Source: Candidatus Thorarchaeota archaeon
GTDB taxonomy: Archaea > Asgardarchaeota > Thorarchaeia > Thorarchaeales > Thorarchaeaceae
Assembly (NCBI GenBank): GCA_963726195.1
Contig: CAVSBO010000004.1
Span: 256,001 to 320,000 of the forward strand
Direction: 5' to 3'
Length of the DNA: 64,000 nt
Below are positions 5,843 to 14,749 of this stretch, piece after piece. How positions within the stretch are numbered: position 1 is the stretch's first letter; the number at the start of each line of letters is the position of its first letter. Both the position numbers and the translations under genes were made by a program. The notes under the pieces are model-generated. The model saw only the letters and a program-made list of their open reading frames with translations. It ran no database searches and was not told the DNA's origin.

Positions 5843-8336
5843 TCATGGTCTCTTGGTTTTCACCCGGAGTGTGAGGATGGAATGAGGACCCACCGGCAGC
5901 CGGAATGTATTGGTGTGGAAACCTATTTCGCCCATGTCTCTTTCACACAAGTCCGTGAGATTCACGGATTCGAGCTCATAGAAGAACTTGAGCGTGGCAA
6001 TGCCTTCGGTGCCACCCATTTCATAGAGTCTTAGCACGAATTCTCCGGGATTCCCGGTCGGCTTGAGGCAGGAAAGAGCCAAGTCCATGCCCTGTATCTC
6101 GAGAAATGATGCCTCGTGAGGCAGGCTGCCGCCAGTGCTCTCTTGACAACATGCCATCAGGGGCAGGCGATGTTCAGCGGAGCTCCTCCATACCTTGGCT
6201 TTGTCCCACTTTCCTCGATGAGGAATAATAGAGTAGTGGAAGATGTGTGTCCCAATCTCGCGTGCAGTCTCGGTTTCTATTATCTCATCATCCTTTCCGC
6301 GGGAGAGGTAGTTTACGCTTCTGAGAAGAGTTGCTGAGAGCACGCCATCCGTGAATTCATAATCGTGGAGCCCGATTGCTGAGAAGCAAATTCCAAGGTC
6401 TGGTCCGGCACAGTCCACCCAATCAAGTGCGTGAAAGAGACCACCTTTGTTGCCTGCTTGGGAGGACCCGCTCCGAGGTATGACAAGCCTCTCCTCAGCA
6501 GCAAACTGCGACCCAACGACGACGCTGTTCGTGTAGACATTCAATGGGAAACTCAAGCGCACTCGCCTTTCTTGTCCCTTGAACTCCAATTCGGTCTCAA
6601 AGTCGACTCGGCGTACACCCTCATAGACGGAAATGCGTTGTCTACGAGTGCATCCATCGAAGTCGCCTGAGATTTCTGCGGTGGCCCGAACAGGTCCGGT
6701 TTCAACAATCTGTATCTTGGAAACAGTACGCAGGGACGTCACTTGGGAGTCCTGAAGCGATCGATTCGAAGGAGAGAATTCGTACAGGTCTCCTACGTCC
6801 GTTTCAATCGTGATGTAGTTCCCGCGTTCTCTAAGGAGCTCGTTTTGGCTCGCCTTGTCAAAGAACCTGAAGATGGCGCCGCTGAATTCATCGAACTCAA
6901 GAATGAAATTGCTGGACTCAATCCAGTTCCTCCCAGTTCTTATTGAGGACGCAAATTCAGGAGCCTTCTCGACTGGGACCAGCGAGTAGACTCTATGGCT
7001 TAGTGGCGGCATTCCCGAGGCGACAAAAGCCAGATTCACAAGGGTCGAATCCTCACTTTTCTTTAGAACCTGAAATGGAATACTGCGACCGTCAGGACCT
7101 CGTAGGCTCGAATGCGCCCGAAATATGGTTGGTCAAGTCGACTTCGATTTGTACAAAGTCGTCCCGCGACCATGGCAATGGATTGGTGACTACGAAACTC
7201 AGATTCTCGGACGGTCTCGCGACCTGCGAAACCATTCGGGCAACTGTCTCTTCTAGTAGTTGCTCCGCTTGGGCAACTGCCTGTTGATACCTCTTGATAG
7301 CCTGCTTGAATGGTTCGTCTGCAAGGGCACCCCTGATGATGTTGTGATCTTGGTTGAAAAGCAGAATCCTCCACAGGTTCTCCAGTTGCGGTATTTTCTC
7401 ACGTTCATCGCCAAAGCTCATGTATAGTTCAATGAGGTGAACAAGACTCTCCAGCCTGCGATTCAGAATCTTGAGCTTGGTTCTGGCACTGAGTCCCCCT
7501 TGGTGCATCGAGGCAAACCGGTCGCTGTAAAGACCTCCCTCAATCACTGGCATTCTGGCCTGTACTGTCTTGGTCTTGTCAGTGAACTCGCGTGGAGTCA
7601 CTATTGCCATCCGCATGTCAGGAAAGGTTGAGTTCCACTTGCTGGCGATATCGGCGAGATGAGGTAGGGGCGGGACAAGTTCTCCGCCAGTTGGTATGAG
7701 CAAGTTGTTCGAAACCGCGTGGCTGCTTATTGCTTCAATAATCTTCAGAATCTTGGTGAATGCATCTCTCTGATTCTCAGACAACCACGCAGCACAGTCA
7801 TATCCCTGAGAGAGCCACGTTGCGATTACTTGGCTGCCGTCAGGTGCTTTCCAGATGAACTCGCTCGGCGAGTCATAACCCATGCCCCGCCAGAAGTAGT
7901 ACGAATCCATTCCGCACAATCTAAGGATTTGCGGCATCTGAGAGGGATGTCCAGCCGAATCGATTGCCCACCCTGTACGAACGTCTATCCCAAATTCCTT
8001 TCTGAAGAACTGTGTGCCGTACAGATACTGGCGTACTATCGACTCCCCGTCGGGCAAGACAAAGTCGGGCATTACATAGGTTCCGCCGACAATCTCGACA
8101 CGTCCCTCTAATACACGCTGATGCAGTGTGTCCCAGTAATTCGGAAACAGCTTCTTGAAGCCCTCTAGCAACGTGACTTGGTCCAAACAGAACCTGTGGG
8201 TAGGATTGACTTCGAGGAAATCTAGTACGCTCTTTACATTCCAAGAGCCAATGCTCACATAGTGTTCGTATGTTCGAGACCTGGAATTATCGAAGTGCAA
8301 AAACGGGCACATGTTGAGGATCCAACGGTCGGTCAT
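5843..8336 (-). CDS. GH38 alpha-mannosidase family protein (split by a frameshift at ~7105)
   Basis: HFD, EIVGGTYVMPD, GESIVRQ, GWAIDSAGH..QMPQI, NQDH, NPLPWSR; C-terminal GH38C region (GPVRAT, TLLRS, VLRLYE). Removing one base joins the halves via LRGPDGRSIPFQV. Confidence 0.88.
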
Positions 8337-8649
8337 GCAAGTCACATCTGTCGGCAGGCCATCGTCTGAGTCTCTAGTTAGGAGTCCTGTCACCTTTATG
8401 AGCATTGCCAGTGGTCAAGGGGCGGGCTATTGATGTGACACAGGACCCTTCAATTGACCCACCGATTGGTCTGTTGGGCAAAGAGAGCGGAAAGATCAAC
8501 GAGCAACAGGACCTGGAAGAGACTTGTGCCAACGCTTCACGTGATGATATCCTGGTCGGAGAACGCAGAGGGGTCGTGTCTTCTCTCTTGAGAACTTGCG
8601 TCCTGAAATGCCGAGTGTGCACTACCCCAACTGCAGGTTGTCCGAACAC

Positions 8650-10836
8650 TTACACGTACCCTGTCAGCGCTTCGGCTTTCTGTGGTTGACGTCTGAGAAT
8701 CACCTCAGCTATCTCCTGGAAGCGTTTCAGGTCGTCAGGACTAATGCTTGGTCGTACCTCGTGTAGGGCCTCGTCGAAATGCTTCATTTCGACGGGCTTG
8801 ACTTTCCAGTTGTTCCTGACTGCGGCCATTGCTGCCTCTCTGCACAGACCTTCTATGTCAGCTCCGGAGAATCCGTCTGTGAGGTCTGCCAATCGCTCAA
8901 GGTTCACGTCCTTAGCTAGGGGCATTTTCCTAGTGTGGACCTTGAGGATTTCTAGCCGAGCGGCTCTGTCGGGTGGCGGCACGAAGAGAACGGCGTCAAA
9001 CCTTCCCGGCCTCAGGACAGCGGGGTCAAGCATATCAGCACGGTTAGTGGCGCCGATAACCAACACGTTCTGCAGGGTCTGCATTCCGTCCACCTCTGCT
9101 AGGAACTGGTTAACGATTCTCTGGCTCACGCCCGAGTCATCTCGAGACCCTCTTGCGCTGAGAATCGCGTCAATCTCATCGAAGAACAGTATGCATGGTG
9201 CTACCTGCCGGGCTTTCTTGAAAATCTCGCGAACCGCCTTCTCTGATTCACCTACATACTTGTTGAAGAACTCAGGCCCCTTGACAGCGATGAAGTTCGC
9301 CTCACTCTCTGTTGCCACAGCCTTGGCAAGCAGTGTCTTCCCTGTGCCCGGGGGTCCAAAGAGCATTATGCCCTTGGGAGTTCTGATTCCCATGCCACTG
9401 AAGACCTCAGGGTGTTTGAGTGGCGCCTCGACGGCCTCCCTGAGCTGAGCCTTCACCTTTTCCAAGCCGCCGATGTCGTCCCATCGTACATTCGGCTTTT
9501 CGACCATTACTTCTCTAAGCGCGGATGGTGATACCTCGGTAAGAGCCGTCTCAAAGTCCGCTTGCGTCACAAAGAGACTGTTCAGAACATCAGGAGGAAT
9601 GTCTCCAGTCTCGGGATCAACATGCGGGAGTGCTCTACGCAGAGCCTGCATGGCTGCTTCTCGTGCTAGTGCTGCGAGATCGGCCCCCACGAATCCGTGA
9701 GTAATTGCTGCGAGCTTCTCAAGGTCGAGACCCTGTTCAAGAGGCATAGCCCTTGTATGTATTTGAAGAATCTCAAGGCGACCTTTCTTGTCAGGGACTC
9801 CTAGCACTATTTCTCTGTCAAACCTGCCGGGCCTTCTGAGAGCAGGATCTAAGTCGTCTGGCCGATTGGTCGCACCGATTACTATGACCTGACCACGGGT
9901 CTGTAGACCATCCATTAGTGCCAAGAGCTGAGCCACGACCCTTCTTTCTACTTCCCCTGTCACTTCTGCTCGCTTGGGCGCAATGCTGTCAATCTCATCG
10001 ATGAAGATGATGCTCGGAGCATTCTTTTCTGCGTCGTCAAAGACCTCTCTTAGCTTCTGCTCGGACTCACCATAGAACTTGGACATTATCTCAGGTCCGT
10101 TTATGGTCTTGAACGTCGCTCCTGATTCGTTGGCAACTGCTTTTGCTATCAATGTCTTTCCGGTACCTGGAGGTCCTGTAAGCAATACACCCTTTGGAGG
10201 TGCAATTCCCAAGCGCTTGAACAGCTCGGGTGACTTCATGGGCAGTTCAATCATTTCGCGTATCTTCTGCAGCTCTTTTCCTAAGCCGCCAATATCCTCG
10301 TACGTGACCTGAGGAATGGACACCTCTTCGGGAGCAGCTGGTCCTGTCCGGACTTCGACCTTTGTCTCAGGTGTTACGCGAGCATGCTTGGCCGGAGCGA
10401 CGGTCGTGACTGTGAATTGAAGGCCTTGGCCGATGGATGCAACTAGCAAAGCATCTCCTCTTGTAACGGGCTTGTTGATGATTTGCTGCTTAATGTACTC
10501 CTCAAATCCAGGCTGAAATCTCACAGGCTGGCTTGGAGCCAAGACGATTCGCGATGCTTCGGAGAGGGTTATGGCCGAGACCTCAACCACATCGCCTAGC
10601 TTCACCCCGGCATTGCTTCTGATGAGGCCGTCCATTCTTATCATATCAAGAATCTCATCTTCTTTGAGTGCGGGCCAGCAAACGGCAACGGTTTCCTTGC
10701 TGGCTTTGAGAAGAACGTAGTCACCAGATCTGACTCCGAGTTGATTCCTCACATCACTGTTCAGTCTGACAATGCCTCGGCCTTGATCCCTCGGCATGGC
10801 CGCGGCAACCTTTAAGCTCACTGACTCTCCCGGCAT
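8650..10836 (-). CDS. cdc48: Cdc48/p97/VAT family double AAA+ ATPase
   Basis: N-domain (DQGRGIVRL), two GPPGTGKT Walker A motifs, FIDEID/FFDEID Walker B, ALRRPGRFD/AVLRPGRFD, C-terminal GYV. Confidence 0.97.
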   Translation of the reverse strand: MPGESVSLKVAAAMPRDQGRGIVRLNSDVRNQLGVRSGDYVLLKASKETVAVCWPALKEDEILDMIRMDGLIRSNAGVKLGDVVEVSAITLSEASRIVLAPSQPVRFQPGFEEYIKQQIINKPVTRGDALLVASIGQGLQFTVTTVAPAKHARVTPETKVEVRTGPAAPEEVSIPQVTYEDIGGLGKELQKIREMIELPMKSPELFKRLGIAPPKGVLLTGPPGTGKTLIAKAVANESGATFKTINGPEIMSKFYGESEQKLREVFDDAEKNAPSIIFIDEIDSIAPKRAEVTGEVERRVVAQLLALMDGLQTRGQVIVIGATNRPDDLDPALRRPGRFDREIVLGVPDKKGRLEILQIHTRAMPLEQGLDLEKLAAITHGFVGADLAALAREAAMQALRRALPHVDPETGDIPPDVLNSLFVTQADFETALTEVSPSALREVMVEKPNVRWDDIGGLEKVKAQLREAVEAPLKHPEVFSGMGIRTPKGIMLFGPPGTGKTLLAKAVATESEANFIAVKGPEFFNKYVGESEKAVREIFKKARQVAPCILFFDEIDAILSARGSRDDSGVSQRIVNQFLAEVDGMQTLQNVLVIGATNRADMLDPAVLRPGRFDAVLFVPPPDRAARLEILKVHTRKMPLAKDVNLERLADLTDGFSGADIEGLCREAAMAAVRNNWKVKPVEMKHFDEALHEVRPSISPDDLKRFQEIAEVILRRQPQKAEALTGYV

Positions 10837-10862
10837 TCTTTCCTCTCCTCGCTTCGGTTTTG

Positions 10863-11285
10863 CTACTCTTTTGAGCCAATCTCCTCTTCACTATTAAGAG
10901 TCTTTGGAAGGTGCATCTCCATCACGCCGTTCCTAACGGATGTGTTTGATTTCTTCAAACTCACGTTGTAGGGCAAATCAAACTTGAGTTCTCTGTCGTT
11001 ATCACCGTCAATCTTGACTGTTAGCTGTCGGTTCTTGATGACTGCTCGCGGTCTCGCAGCGTCTGACACTCCGTCGACTGCGATAAGAATGCTGTCTCCT
11101 AAATCGATCATTTCTCCATGATCTTCGTTACTCTCTATCTCGGACTCAAAGCGCTGCTCGTCTGAGCCTTCGTCGTGGTCGTCTGATTCTGCATCTAGAG
11201 AGCTGAAAGGACTCATCCTAAGCATGTCCGACATCATTCTGCCAAACAGCTGGTCCACTATTCTCTTGAAGTCATCATCAATCAT
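10863..11285 (-). CDS. Small heat-shock protein (Hsp20/alpha-crystallin-like)
   Basis: Probable start MIDDDFKRIVDQLF; C-terminal FDLPYNV...SVRNGVMEMHLPK; directly upstream of cdc48, a common archaeal arrangement. Confidence 0.8.
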   Translation of the reverse strand: MIDDDFKRIVDQLFGRMMSDMLRMSPFSSLDAESDDHDEGSDEQRFESEIESNEDHGEMIDLGDSILIAVDGVSDAARPRAVIKNRQLTVKIDGDNDRELKFDLPYNVSLKKSNTSVRNGVMEMHLPKTLNSEEEIGSKE

Positions 11286-11374
11286 AGTTCCCTCATCTCT
11301 TGGTGAGGTCCCGGGCGGCTGTTCACCGCCCTGAGAGTCACGTTCGGGACCTCTGTACAGCTTGGTACAGTGGG

Positions 11375-11422
11375 CTAGGGACCACTTTGTACCATAGCCA
11401 CTAGGGACCACTTTGTATATAA
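11375..11422 (-). promoter_or_regulatory. hsp20-cdc48 promoter: TATA box plus two perfect 17-bp direct repeats
   Basis: CTAGGGACCACTTTGTA at 11375-11391 and 11401-11417; TTATATA on the minus strand at 11416-11422. Confidence 0.65.
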
Positions 11423-11645
11423 GGTTTATGAACTGCATGCGTGTCTCAAGGGCGGGAGGTACACAGCTCTGAGCTGAATTCTCAGGATGGGCCTTCACGG
11501 TCGGCTTCACACCTCAACTGTCTTGTTCTTGCCAAAACCACGTTACTATTCCATTCCTAGAAACGAGCCGGAAGGAATATGGATATAACAAAACTCAATC
11601 ACTCTGACAGCATACGAAGCAAACACGATTCGGAGGATGTGCGAC

Positions 11646-12554
11646 ATGGTCCGATGCTCTCTATGCGGGCAGGAAGAACTCTGTTTCACCTGTCAATACT
11701 GCAAGGGAGTGTTTTGTGCCGAGCACCGTCTTCCGGAGAGCCACGGATGTCCGAGCCTGCAAAGAGCTCGTGATGATGCTAGGAAGAGGATAGCCGATTC
11801 GTTCAGTGGCGAGTACTTAGAGGAAGAAGAAGACACCGAGGAGAACACGACTTCTGTTCGGGCGCCAGTCATAAGACGGCCTCTAGAAGCTCGTCCAGCG
11901 ACACGGTCGAGGTTTTCATCCCAAGAGAAGAGAGACATTGTCATTGCTTCAGTTCTCGTCAGCTTGGTCGCGTTGTCCATGATAGGGAGTCCTAGCGGAA
12001 TAGTCTCAACGCTGCTCATTCTCCCTAGCATAATCTCCGCTGGGTTGTGGTGGTACCCGACGACGCTTGTCATCATCTTTCTCTCATCATTCATGATACA
12101 CGAGATGGCCCACAAGTTCGTGGCACAGCACTATGGGATGTGGAGCGAGTTCAGGATGCTGCCCTATGGCTACTTCCTGTCAGCCATGGCAATACTGTTC
12201 TCAATTCCTGTGTTTGGTACTGGCGCAGTGTTCACATCGGGATCTACGAGTCCTGACAGGGATGCCAAGTCGACCTTGGCTGGCCCCTTGTCAAACGCTG
12301 TCTTGGCCTCGATATTCACGGTCGTTGGTGTAATTGCATTCCTCTTCACAGGACTGCACTTCCCGTTTAGCTATGTGATACAATATGCAGCAGCTCTGAA
12401 TAGCATGCTCGGTTTGTTCAACCTGATACCATTTCCTCCGTTTGATGGGGCCCGAATCGTGCTATGGAGGAAAGGAGTTTGGGCCGCCATGCTTGTAGCG
12501 CTGTTTGCTTTGCTGATTGCAGACTATTGGTTCATCCCGATGCTCTGGAGTTAA
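11646..12554 (+). CDS. AN1-type zinc finger fused to M50 (site-2) intramembrane metalloprotease
   Basis: CSLC-x6-CQYC-x3-CAEHRLPESHGC; HEMAH; AGPLSN; FNLIPFPPFDG; several TM helices; GGAGG upstream. Confidence 0.9.
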   Translation: MVRCSLCGQEELCFTCQYCKGVFCAEHRLPESHGCPSLQRARDDARKRIADSFSGEYLEEEEDTEENTTSVRAPVIRRPLEARPATRSRFSSQEKRDIVIASVLVSLVALSMIGSPSGIVSTLLILPSIISAGLWWYPTTLVIIFLSSFMIHEMAHKFVAQHYGMWSEFRMLPYGYFLSAMAILFSIPVFGTGAVFTSGSTSPDRDAKSTLAGPLSNAVLASIFTVVGVIAFLFTGLHFPFSYVIQYAAALNSMLGLFNLIPFPPFDGARIVLWRKGVWAAMLVALFALLIADYWFIPMLWS

Positions 12555-12626: not shown

Positions 12627-13178
12627 ATGAGTGACGTGGCCTGTGCATGTGAAACTCATATAAGCGACTCCCATTGCATAAGACTGAGGCGAGCGAAATG
12701 GAATCCGAAAGAAGAGAACGTGCTTCGGCAATTCGACAGTATGAGAACAAGGATTGAAGGACTTCTCGACAACCTTGAGAAAGCGAGTCAATCCTCAAGT
12801 GATTTGGACGAGATCACGAAGGAGCGCGACGAGCTGAAAGCTCAGATGATGCAGATAACCGGAAAGCTTGAGCGGGTCTCGGAACTCTATAGAGAAGCCT
12901 CCACTGAAAAGGATAAGCTCAAAGAAAAAGTGGACGTAAGCGGCCTGCTTGCGATTTACATAACGCTCATTGAGACAGTCTTTGGAGGAAAGCCCCACGC
13001 CCGTGTCCTCTACACTTTACATAACACGAAGAAGGCAATCACTAGGAAGAACCTGGAGTCAAGCACGGGTATTATGTCAACCGCAATCATGAAAGCTATT
13101 CATGATCTCCGGAACTCCAATCTGGTGTCATACGACGAAGACACGCAAGAAGTGAAGCTAATCAAGGACATCTTCTAG
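12627..13178 (+). CDS. Coiled-coil + C-terminal winged-helix protein
   Basis: Heptad region then PHARVLYTL...ITRKNLESSTG...AIHDLRNSNLVSYDE. The true start may be ATG 12698 with a 1-nt indel. Confidence 0.7.
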   Translation: MSDVACACETHISDSHCIRLRRAKWNPKEENVLRQFDSMRTRIEGLLDNLEKASQSSSDLDEITKERDELKAQMMQITGKLERVSELYREASTEKDKLKEKVDVSGLLAIYITLIETVFGGKPHARVLYTLHNTKKAITRKNLESSTGIMSTAIMKAIHDLRNSNLVSYDEDTQEVKLIKDIF

Positions 13179-13226: not shown

Positions 13227-14231
13227 ATGCATTCGAGAATCACTTACAGCCCCGTTCTGAGAAAGTACGTGAAAGCGCACAACTTGGAAGAGAAGCTATA
13301 TTCGATAGTAGATCTACTGGGCACTGATGCTCAAGATGTCATAAGATGGGCGGAGTCGGAAGCCAGCCGCAGGAATCGGGAAGGGTCCGCCCCGGAGAAT
13401 TCGGATCTTGGAAAAGTCATGTTCGAGCTCATAGGGAATGAAGCCGCGGTCAGACTGATTCAGTACAACGAATCGAGAGGTAGATTGACAACTCGGAGTG
13501 AAGTGAGTCTTAGGACAGGACACAGGGCTGACATGCCCTACCTGTATCAGGAGGCGGGATTGAGGCATCCTCAGGAGGCTAGGAATCTCCGCCATAATTT
13601 GTTTCATCGGTCCTTCACCGCCTTGGTCTCACGTATATTTCCAGATGTGACCACAAGTGTGCCTGTCACAGGTGAAGGTTTGACGCCTGACCTCATGGTG
13701 AACCACAGGAATCCTGACTGGACGCTCTGTGTCGAATACAAGGGTTATCGCTCCATGACGCTTCTGAGTGAAGCAGAAATCATCAAGGCCATGCGATATC
13801 AGCAGGCCTACGGTTCTGCATGGCTTGTCACAACAACCATGAAGACAGTTCAGTCTCTCTACGGCAGCAAACTCTCGTCCGAGAAGCTAATTGAGGGCGG
13901 CATTGTCAGACTTGAGCGAATCACGAAGCGGAAGACCTTCACCGACGAACAACGGGAAATCAGGGGCATTGCAAAGAAGGGTCTTTTGCAGCTCGAGAAA
14001 GTGCGCGGCATGAGCCTGCGGTGCGATCTAGTATCTGCAGATGACATGATTGCGTCCTGTCGTCAAGGAACTCCAATCAAGGCCTTGGCGATAACTACTG
14101 GCCTTGAACTGGCTGAGATGCTTGACAAAGAAGGCCTAGGAGAGCAGGCCACACAGATCAGAAGAGTGATGAAGGTGCCAACGGACCTTCTACATAGCGA
14201 CTCGGTGACGTCACTTCGGCTCTTGAGCTGA
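13227..14231 (+). CDS. PD-(D/E)XK restriction-endonuclease-like fold protein
   Basis: TPDLMV...CVEYKG, followed by KAMRY and AWLVTT. Confidence 0.65.
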   Translation: MHSRITYSPVLRKYVKAHNLEEKLYSIVDLLGTDAQDVIRWAESEASRRNREGSAPENSDLGKVMFELIGNEAAVRLIQYNESRGRLTTRSEVSLRTGHRADMPYLYQEAGLRHPQEARNLRHNLFHRSFTALVSRIFPDVTTSVPVTGEGLTPDLMVNHRNPDWTLCVEYKGYRSMTLLSEAEIIKAMRYQQAYGSAWLVTTTMKTVQSLYGSKLSSEKLIEGGIVRLERITKRKTFTDEQREIRGIAKKGLLQLEKVRGMSLRCDLVSADDMIASCRQGTPIKALAITTGLELAEMLDKEGLGEQATQIRRVMKVPTDLLHSDSVTSLRLLS

Positions 14232-14293: not shown

Positions 14294-14749
14294 GTGGCAG
14301 TCTCAGCTCGCACGTTAACTCTGAAGAAGCTGTTCGTCTTGCCGGAAGCCAGGCATTCAAGACAATTGAGCGCGAAGAGCGTGCCCTCTCATCTTAGGGA
14401 GCTGCTGAAGGACCTATGCACCACATCACCCGTGCTTGGAGCAGCCATCTTCACTGTTGAGGGACTACCTTTTGTTAGCTACTTCAACACGGGCACTGAA
14501 GACGTCACTGTTGCTGCCATGGTTGCCAGTCTTCATTCCACAAGTGTTCAGATGCTCAACGAACTACGACAAGGTTCCCTAAAGTCAATAATCATAGAAG
14601 GCACAGGCGGAAAGACAGTCGTAGTGTCTGTTCCACCTGGGTATGTCTTGGCAGTTATCGCTCCTGATATCGCGCGGACGGGACTTGTGTTCGGCGATGC
14701 TAAACGTGTCGCAAGAGAATGCACCAGACTAATCGAGCAAGTTGGTTGA
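14294..14749 (+). CDS. Roadblock/LC7 domain protein (start may be 14366 or 14381)
   Basis: GAAIFTVEGLP, VAAMVASL, ELRQGSLKSIIIEG, TGLVFGDAKRVA. Confidence 0.9.
   Translation: MAVSARTLTLKKLFVLPEARHSRQLSAKSVPSHLRELLKDLCTTSPVLGAAIFTVEGLPFVSYFNTGTEDVTVAAMVASLHSTSVQMLNELRQGSLKSIIIEGTGGKTVVVSVPPGYVLAVIAPDIARTGLVFGDAKRVARECTRLIEQVG

Follow-up and report, generated by a model that had tools for sequence, protein, structure and literature searches.

Archaeal Cdc48 works as a proteasomal ATPase by means of its C-terminal HbYX (hydrophobic-Tyr-X) tail (PMC3493965). HSP20 and CDC48 have been tied to the regulators Phr in Pyrococcus and HSR1 in Archaeoglobus (PMC5852551), and the hsp20-cdc48 operon of Nitrosopumilus is heat-induced (PMC12974425). 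For the site-2 proteases (S2Ps) of archaea, a 2022 review of archaeal membrane proteases gives the function as unknown and names only CBS, PDZ or none as extra domains (PMC9263693). Here we analysed a 64,000-nucleotide stretch of a Candidatus Thorarchaeota genome (contig C4:256001-320000 of a 2.9-Mb genome that is 88.9% complete; hereafter the window), in which a cdc48 gene and a gene for an Hsp20-like protein stand head-to-head with a gene encoding an AN1 zinc finger fused to an S2P of the M50 family (AN1-S2P). Literature searches for AN1-S2P fusions, and for AN1 in connection with Asgard archaea and Cdc48, returned nothing relevant.

The locus consists of two units with separate promoters. 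The hsp20-like/cdc48 pair is, by analogy, an ordinary archaeal heat-shock unit of a known kind, the Phr/HSR1 type. For AN1-S2P, membrane protein quality control is a plausible role and the best single explanation, because its gene lies repeatedly, though not universally, near Cdc48 and further proteostasis genes.

Results

An AN1 finger of the Cuz1/ZFAND1 type is fused to an intact site-2 protease

The gene order of the window, with cdc48 and the hsp20-like gene on the minus strand and the AN1-S2P gene on the plus strand, was confirmed at the coordinates listed in Table 1. The divergent arrangement described in the original prediction, which was made from the sequence alone, is real; the start codons of the hsp20-like and AN1-S2P genes are separated by about 360 nt. 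Pfam recognizes both parts of the fusion, zf-AN1 with 37.3 bits (cut-off 27.9) and Peptidase_M50 with 47 bits (cut-off 27.2). The probable start is the second ATG of the open reading frame, after a GGAGG; the database copy has 302 residues. The finger conforms to the eight-ligand pattern C-x2-C-x(8-12)-C-x(1-2)-C-x4-C-x2-H-x5-H-x-C, with its zinc ligands encoded at 11655-11750, and is linked to the protease by an acidic stretch (11811-11849) followed by a basic one (11874-11915). The protease motifs HEMAH (12099-12113) and NLIPFPPFDG (12420-12449) follow, so that the finger, the acidic linker and the intact M50 protease of the original prediction are all present. Across 47 homologues, with identities as low as 22%, the eight zinc ligands, HExxH and N..P....DG (NxxPxxxxDG) do not vary. 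From these intact catalytic and zinc residues, AN1-S2P is predicted to be an active intramembrane site-2 metalloprotease. It is one of three M50 genes in the genome and carries the only AN1 finger.

An AlphaFold2 (AF2) model of the fusion (pLDDT 88.5) comprises the finger at residues 1-37, a helix at residues 38-53, a disordered acidic-then-basic linker and the S2P core at residues 92-299. Foldseek placed MjS2P and SpoIVFB at the top of the matches to the core, with probabilities of 0.99-1.00 but weak E-values (0.03), and phmmer matched the core to MjS2P with an E-value of 1e-6. Like MjS2P (MJ0392, PDB 3b4r), SpoIVFB and RseP, the protein has a six-helix membrane core with HExxH and NxxPxxxxDG as zinc ligands. 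PDZ and CBS domains are lacking, and in their place an N-terminal AN1 finger, predicted to be cytosolic, sits on the disordered acidic-basic linker. The N-terminus is probably cytoplasmic because the basic stretch precedes the first transmembrane helix and because of the zinc finger itself.

The nearest solved relatives of the finger are ZF1 of ZFAND1 (E 3e-7) and yeast Cuz1 (E 1e-4), ahead of ZFAND5/6 and the plant SAPs; the fold match with Cuz1 has 40% identity and a root-mean-square deviation of 1.5 A. In both sequence and structure the finger is closest to the Cuz1/ZFAND1/AIRAP(L) subfamily. Most Asgard copies retain x-Phi-LPF-x-C, the counterpart of the LDFLP motif, whereas the window finger has a shortened loop (EELCFTC). 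Membrane anchoring is a further feature shared with AIRAPL. Unlike the eukaryotic proteins, the finger here is fused to a protease, and the fusion lacks the ubiquitin-like domain (UBL), the VCP-interacting motif (VIM) and the ubiquitin-interacting motif, which are the eukaryotic p97/Cdc48- and ubiquitin-binding elements. Domain searches and the model revealed no UBL or VIM, the finger being followed only by one helix and the disordered linker, and inspection of this helix and linker for p97-binding motifs showed no VIM (R-x5-AA-x2-R), VCP-binding motif (VBM) or SHP motif.

AN1-S2P and Cdc48 are neighbours in several Asgard lineages

A synteny survey found the adjacency of AN1-S2P and Cdc48 beyond the window genome, namely in the Thorarchaeota family to which it belongs, in family f15, in the Baldrarchaeia and in a deeper Thor-related metagenomic lineage. 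The pairing spans three Asgard classes. In 31/33 informative genomes of the Thorarchaeota family, hsp20-like/cdc48 lies at most 4 kb from AN1-S2P; the two are directly divergent or have a gene for an FAD-dependent oxidoreductase between them, and in one genome (L048) all three are co-directional. The informative cases are those outside this family. In family f15, Cdc48 is encoded immediately downstream of AN1-S2P, in convergent orientation, in 4/4 genomes, and is the orthologue of the window Cdc48 (shared clade, SH-aLRT 88). In the Baldrarchaeia, cdc48 follows AN1-S2P co-directionally after a gap of about 140 nt and belongs to a different paralogue clade. Both the f15 and the Baldrarchaeia loci are without an Hsp20-like gene. 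Genomes carry 2-4 Cdc48 paralogues, and that of the window has a second one on contig C16. On the basis of this number per ~3-Mb genome, immediate adjacency would arise by chance in roughly 0.2% of cases per lineage and is unlikely to be accidental, but independent events are few.

In further, non-Asgard lineages, other proteostasis genes adjoin the fusion. At one locus (L110:5277-7597), a PCMT gene lies upstream and a gene for a PAC2/PbaB-type proteasome factor downstream, with Cdc48 2.5 kb away. At another (L124:21-3944), the fusion is followed after a 3-nt gap by a gene for an M17 leucyl aminopeptidase and then by a thermosome gene. Genes of the digeranylgeranylglycerophospholipid-reductase type are found near the fusion in the Baldrarchaeia (L058:10071-11297) and on a metagenomic contig (L121:2-979), where the gene overlaps the fusion start.

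The oxidoreductase that intervenes in the Thorarchaeota family (L034-L047, L050-L052, L072) is a protein of 462-484 residues with PF07992 and PF21688 domains and is COG2509-like. In the deeper Thor-related lineage (L115), the gene of this oxidoreductase is the immediate downstream neighbour of AN1-S2P (L115:7020-8408); tblastn with this copy gave no match in the genome of the window. We considered whether the oxidoreductase might be a homologue of geranylgeranyl reductase, which would link it to the reductase genes of the Baldrarchaeia and L121, and rejected this, since BLASTP finds only the dinucleotide-binding motif.

AN1 fingers occur on intramembrane-protease folds in several architectures

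Of 43 genomes of the family, 40 have a full-length homologue of AN1-S2P, and such homologues are also present in many further Asgard families. In the ESM-Atlas, clusters under the name 'Peptidase family M50/AN1-like zinc finger' are most frequent in Bathyarchaeota, and NCBI labels the members 'AN1-type zinc finger domain-containing protein'. AN1-S2P is a database-annotated, uncharacterised archaeal family of Asgard and Bathyarchaeota.

The N-terminal finger is the commonest form of the coupling across Asgard. Borrarchaeum and one other lineage have the finger at the C-terminus of the S2P (L075:7971-8948, L076:7683-8660, L081:1397-2464), and another family has a split form, in which a finger-less S2P of 208-213 residues is followed by a separate AN1 gene with two transmembrane segments (L077:7513-8025, L079:7547-8014). 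In two other Asgard families, a second AN1 finger, joined to a rhomboid-like polytopic domain, is the product of the gene beside AN1-S2P (L065:6869-7822, L070:9023-9949, L088:6960-7937, L090:6922-7848, L091:9061-9996). The matches of this domain are weak but consistent, being sub-threshold in Pfam for Rhomboid (20.5 bits)/DUF1751 and, with a profile, at E 0.01 for GlpG. The serine of the GxSG motif is apparently replaced, the position reading W, and judged from its sequence the protein looks like an AN1-tagged rhomboid pseudoprotease. Since the coupling to S2P takes N-terminal, C-terminal and split forms and an AN1-rhomboid-like fusion also exists, AN1 looks like a cytosolic module in general use on intramembrane-protease folds. 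RhoII of Haloferax volcanii presumably carries an AN1 finger as well, although the literature consulted did not confirm it; its core is a rhomboid, in contrast to the S2P core described here. The H. volcanii control genome yields a zf-AN1 match.

The window Cdc48 has a tail that may dock on the 20S proteasome

The window Cdc48 scores 1072.8 bits against TIGR01243 (cut-off 802.65) and has the domain composition of the Cdc48/VAT type. Walker A motifs (GPPGTGKT) are present at residues 221 and 494, DEID at residues 280 and 553, and both pore-1 loops are aromatic (KFYG and KYVG). The C-terminal tail, ...LTGYV, is HbYX-like, with a penultimate Tyr that is preceded by Gly instead of the hydrophobic residue of HbYX. 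The GYV terminus with its penultimate Tyr had been noted from the sequence and proved to be conserved among orthologues, whose tails are GYV, GYM, GYI, AYV, GFV or LYA, with the penultimate Tyr/Phe kept. The genome contains four proteasome-family subunits, encoding 20S, and PAN-like AAA genes. The original prediction also held that archaeal Cdc48 can dock on 20S through its C-terminal tail, which matches published work (PMC3493965). The downstream part of a route from Cdc48 to 20S is feasible because this tail activity is published, the penultimate Tyr is conserved and 20S subunits are encoded.

The hsp20-like/cdc48 pair resembles Phr/HSR1-regulated heat-shock operons

The hsp20-like open reading frame was listed as 10863-11510. 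Its true start is the ATG at 11285 (MIDDDF..., 140 residues), because the alignment with orthologues begins only at Met76 and the conserved stretch upstream of it shifts frame between genomes. The stop codon lies 26 nt upstream of the cdc48 start, and because of this short gap the pair looks like an operon. The window protein gave no significant HSP20 match in Pfam or NCBIfam, and Pfam HSP20 touches only 3/20 orthologues, at E 0.025. An AF2 model built from the 20-orthologue alignment (pLDDT 72 overall, 80-94 in the sandwich) shows a seven-strand beta sandwich of the alpha-crystallin type, preceded by a conserved N-terminal helix (MIDDDFxxxFR) and a disordered, acidic linker. The top Foldseek matches of the model are alpha-crystallin domains (ACDs) of small heat-shock proteins (sHSPs), the best in the PDB being the ACD of Sulfolobus Hsp20.1 (4rzk; E 3e-5, 25% identity), with p23/CS domains ranking only slightly below. 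Most orthologues end in G-Y/F-L-K/R-I-E; the window protein ends in EEEIGSKE and has no clear I/L-x-I/V anchoring motif. The label 'Hsp20-like' appears right at the level of the modelled fold, and strict membership of the sHSP family is not implied. The original placement of an Hsp20 beside Cdc48 stands for the alpha-crystallin fold; it does not stand for an HSP20 match in Pfam or NCBIfam.

The promoter of the pair contains two exact 17-bp direct repeats at 11375-11391 and 11401-11417, with the minus-strand core TGGTCCCTAG and a period of 26 bp, which abut a minus-strand TATA box at 11416-11424. The repeat pair occurs once in the whole genome. Family members keep the TGGTCCCTAG core some 100 nt ahead of the hsp20-like gene, and it stays with the hsp20-like promoter even where another gene separates AN1-S2P. 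This 10-mer core recurs after the TATA box of a Phr-like regulator gene of the ArsR family, which is unlinked, on contig C3 (~175300-176100; L120:1301-2130); the genome has four exact copies of the 10-mer, three of them inside the hsp20-cdc48 and regulator promoters. The regulator gene (L120:1301-2005, minus strand) has its best PDB match in 2p4w (E 2.5e-11), which we take to be the structure of P. furiosus Phr, and its best NCBIfam match, Phr_regulator, reaches 50.9 bits, below the cut-off of 320. On the deeper Thor-related metagenomic contig (L115), a homologue of the C3 regulator heads the operon, in the order HTH_5 regulator, Hsp20-like, Cdc48.

The window genome has what characterizes a Phr/HSR1 regulon, namely a Phr-like regulator and an operator that is present both in the promoter of the regulator gene itself and in that of hsp20/AAA+. 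As in the Phr system of Pyrococcus furiosus, the HSR1 system of Archaeoglobus fulgidus and Nitrosopumilus Nmar_0010-0011, a gene for a chaperone with the ACD fold and cdc48 are in tandem; the TATA box carries a tandem operator, the same site recurs at the promoter of a Phr-like ArsR-type regulator and, in the related lineage L115, the regulator gene is at the head of the operon as in Archaeoglobus HSR1. The window system differs in that its chaperone has diverged too far to be recognized by the Pfam HSP20 model, its regulator is encoded elsewhere in the genome and scores below the NCBIfam cut-off, and the operator (TGGTCCCTAG, two copies, 26-bp period) is lineage-specific. The Phr-like winged-helix regulator would repress hsp20-cdc48 by binding the tandem TGGTCCCTAG over the TATA box and transcription start, and would bind the same site in its own promoter for autoregulation.

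Shared regulation of both units by the 17-bp repeats was rejected, since the repeat pair is unique and bound to the hsp20-cdc48 promoter, even when AN1-S2P is separated from it. The AN1-S2P gene has a promoter-like element of its own (Table 1), and GGAATACGRATATAT is kept at the same position upstream of AN1-S2P in most family members. In relatives (L008, L015, L022, L027, L033, L034, L036, L038, L039 and others), a conserved GTCC[AC]CTAGGAATACGRATATA element is present about 45-60 nt upstream of AN1-S2P. Its first half resembles a Phr-type half-site plus one extra base; the window retains only GGAATATGGATATAA. The GTCC[AC]CTAGGAATACGRATATA element is possibly a second, weaker regulator site in these relatives.

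Features and flanking genes of the locus

Table 1. Features of the cdc48/hsp20-like/AN1-S2P locus in window coordinates.
Feature	Position	Strand	Basis
Cdc48/VAT-type double-ring AAA+ unfoldase, 728 aa	8650-10836	-	TIGR01243, CDC48_N, CDC48_2, two AAA domains
Hsp20-like gene, 140 aa	10863-11285	-	20-orthologue alignment, AF2 model, Foldseek
Promoter and operator of hsp20-like/cdc48	11375-11424	-	Two exact 17-bp direct repeats, TATA box
Promoter-like element of the AN1-S2P gene (GGAATATGGATATAA)	11574-11588	+	58 nt before probable start
AN1 zinc finger/S2P (M50) fusion	11637-12554	+	Pfam zf-AN1, Peptidase_M50; probable start 11646

Directly downstream of cdc48, a GH38 alpha-mannosidase is encoded in two consecutive open reading frames (5843-7039 and 7092-8405, minus strand), one with the N-terminal and middle domains and the other with the C-terminal domains; the two-part match pattern and the position are repeated in nine further genomes of the family. 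GH38 is not present beside Cdc48 in f15 or the Baldrarchaeia. On the other side of the locus, AN1-S2P is directly followed by two plus-strand genes without a Pfam match, at 12627-13178 (183 residues, with a coiled-coil-like N-half) and 13227-14231 (334 residues). This pair is kept across the family at 53-82% identity, about 3 kb farther off in most relatives, and a Roadblock/LC7 gene is always next (14294-14749 in the window).

Discussion

A physical or functional link between AN1-S2P and the Cdc48/proteasome machinery is the reading that we prefer, though tentatively. The protease would clip, inside the bilayer, membrane proteins that are damaged or in excess, and the tethered AN1 finger, on its flexible linker of about 50 residues, would dock proteasomal machinery at the membrane. 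The machinery recruited may be a 20S-associated ATPase such as the window Cdc48, or the proteasome itself, and the clipped fragments would then be extracted, unfolded and degraded. Such a route would correspond in archaea to the RHBDL4/Derlin-p97 step of endoplasmic-reticulum-associated degradation (ERAD). RHBDL4, a rhomboid protease, and the Derlins, which are pseudoproteases, recruit p97 in ERAD. Their logic is alike, an intramembrane-protease fold bearing a cytosolic part able in principle to attract an AAA+ extractor, and the Asgard AN1 finger is also fused to a rhomboid-like protein beside AN1-S2P. They differ in class (metallo here, serine there) and in the recruiting element (AN1 here, VBM/SHP there), and the likeness is one of analogy.

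The ERAD-like hand-off of the original prediction is partly supported; in its favour are the recurrent Cdc48 neighbourhood, the ZFAND1/Cuz1-like finger, the conserved tail Tyr and the 20S genes. We also count in favour of a link that the adjacency survives rearrangement, occurring in divergent, co-directional and convergent forms and with either the orthologue or a paralogue of Cdc48. Several observations weigh against it, and many of these speak for another explanation, in which AN1-S2P is a stand-alone protease, its finger serves substrates or regulators unrelated to Cdc48 and its position reflects an inherited Asgard gene order, perhaps with loosely similar stress expression. A 15-kb block comprising a 264-aa gene, GH38, Cdc48, AN1-S2P, the two unknown genes and Roadblock is syntenic in the Thorarchaeota family. 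Conservation within the family is therefore not specific to the pairing with Cdc48, and we discounted it as a sign of a functional link, GH38, Roadblock and the two unknown genes being equally conserved neighbours. In roughly half of the family genomes, the two units are separated by the FAD-dependent oxidoreductase gene. Cdc48 is absent within 8 kb of AN1-S2P in fourteen other Asgard families, and in other archaea the neighbours vary, some copies sitting among unrelated housekeeping genes. The f15 and Baldrarchaeia loci have an upstream polysaccharide deacetylase gene in common and therefore may not be independent cases; perhaps they derive from one ancestral arrangement, so that few independent events would be required. 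The orientation of AN1-S2P relative to Cdc48 varies, so co-transcription is not conserved, and the units have separate promoters, the heat-shock operator being confined to that of hsp20-cdc48 and missing from the window AN1-S2P promoter. If the two were neighbours only, it would be harder to see why the adjacency persists over class-level divergence though other flanks change and orientation flips, why the Baldrarchaeia neighbour is a different Cdc48 paralogue, why unrelated lineages repeatedly have proteostasis genes next to the fusion and why the finger is nearest to the AN1 subfamily linked to Cdc48 and the proteasome. We regard mere neighbourhood as a credible account, if a somewhat doubtful one.

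The choice of partner bears on the same question. In Cuz1 and ZFAND1, Cdc48/p97 is bound by the UBL domain, and binding to the proteasome requires the AN1 finger (PMC5035049, PMC11047754). The premise that eukaryotic AN1 proteins link Cdc48 and the proteasome thus holds for the finger with respect to the proteasome and fails with respect to Cdc48, and this too counts against a hand-off to Cdc48. What the finger binds, which substrates are cleaved and whether such a hand-off takes place are matters of inference, the last because UBL, not AN1, binds Cdc48/p97 in eukaryotes and the fusion is without UBL or VIM. To our knowledge, archaea also lack the 19S components, base subunits among them, that are implicated in eukaryotic AN1 binding, a further difficulty for any docking by the finger. 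The finger might instead target the protease or its products directly to 20S or PAN, or PbaB/PAC2, independently of Cdc48, which would then be one of several interchangeable ATPases. This fits the finding for Cuz1, whose AN1 finger is required for proteasome but not Cdc48 binding (PMC5035049), the role of archaeal PbaB as a proteasome activator (PMC3605417), the PAC2-family gene directly downstream of the fusion in one lineage and the PAN-like AAA and four proteasome-family genes in the genome. The want of 19S base subunits tells against it, and the recurrent Asgard neighbour is Cdc48 and not a proteasome or PAN gene; we consider direct targeting quite unlikely. Regulated intramembrane proteolysis offers another role, in which a membrane-tethered factor would be cleaved under heat or membrane stress and the fragment set free would tune stress genes such as hsp20-cdc48, with the finger sensing stress or binding a regulator. 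The characterised S2Ps RseP, SpoIVFB and SREBP-S2P do work in signalling cascades (PMC9263693), the divergent pair has a common intergenic region, and GTCC[AC]CTAG, with its likeness to a Phr-type half-site, lies ahead of the AN1-S2P promoter in many family members. The element is absent from the AN1-S2P promoter of the window, however, the neighbourhood has no conserved membrane-tethered transcription factor or site-1 protease, a soluble, autoregulated Phr-like regulator would already account for control of the operon, and the fusion is widespread where no stress operon adjoins. A signalling role is accordingly the most improbable of the alternatives.

A broader version of the quality-control reading is that Asgard and some other archaea have a pre-eukaryotic pathway of membrane dislocation and degradation, in which a membrane-tethered AN1 finger recruits Cdc48 and/or the proteasome, and from which Cuz1, ZFAND1 and AIRAPL as well as the Derlin/RHBDL4 logic descend. 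The carriers of AN1 in such a pathway may be the active S2P and, in many lineages, the neighbouring inactive rhomboid. We hold this version to be unlikely. The finding bears on how ERAD arose, in which Cdc48/p97 pulls proteins from the membrane and feeds the proteasome. We know of no archaeal Cdc48 adaptor and of no substrate of an archaeal S2P, and a finger of the Cuz1/ZFAND1 type on intramembrane proteases that are repeatedly encoded beside Cdc48 in Asgard archaea provides a concrete hypothesis. If the finger binds none of Cdc48, PAN and 20S, the locus would be an ordinary heat-shock operon beside an uncharacterised protease. If it binds one of them, AN1-S2P would be the first archaeal membrane adaptor of Cdc48 or the proteasome and a plausible ancestor of the eukaryotic AN1 cofactors.

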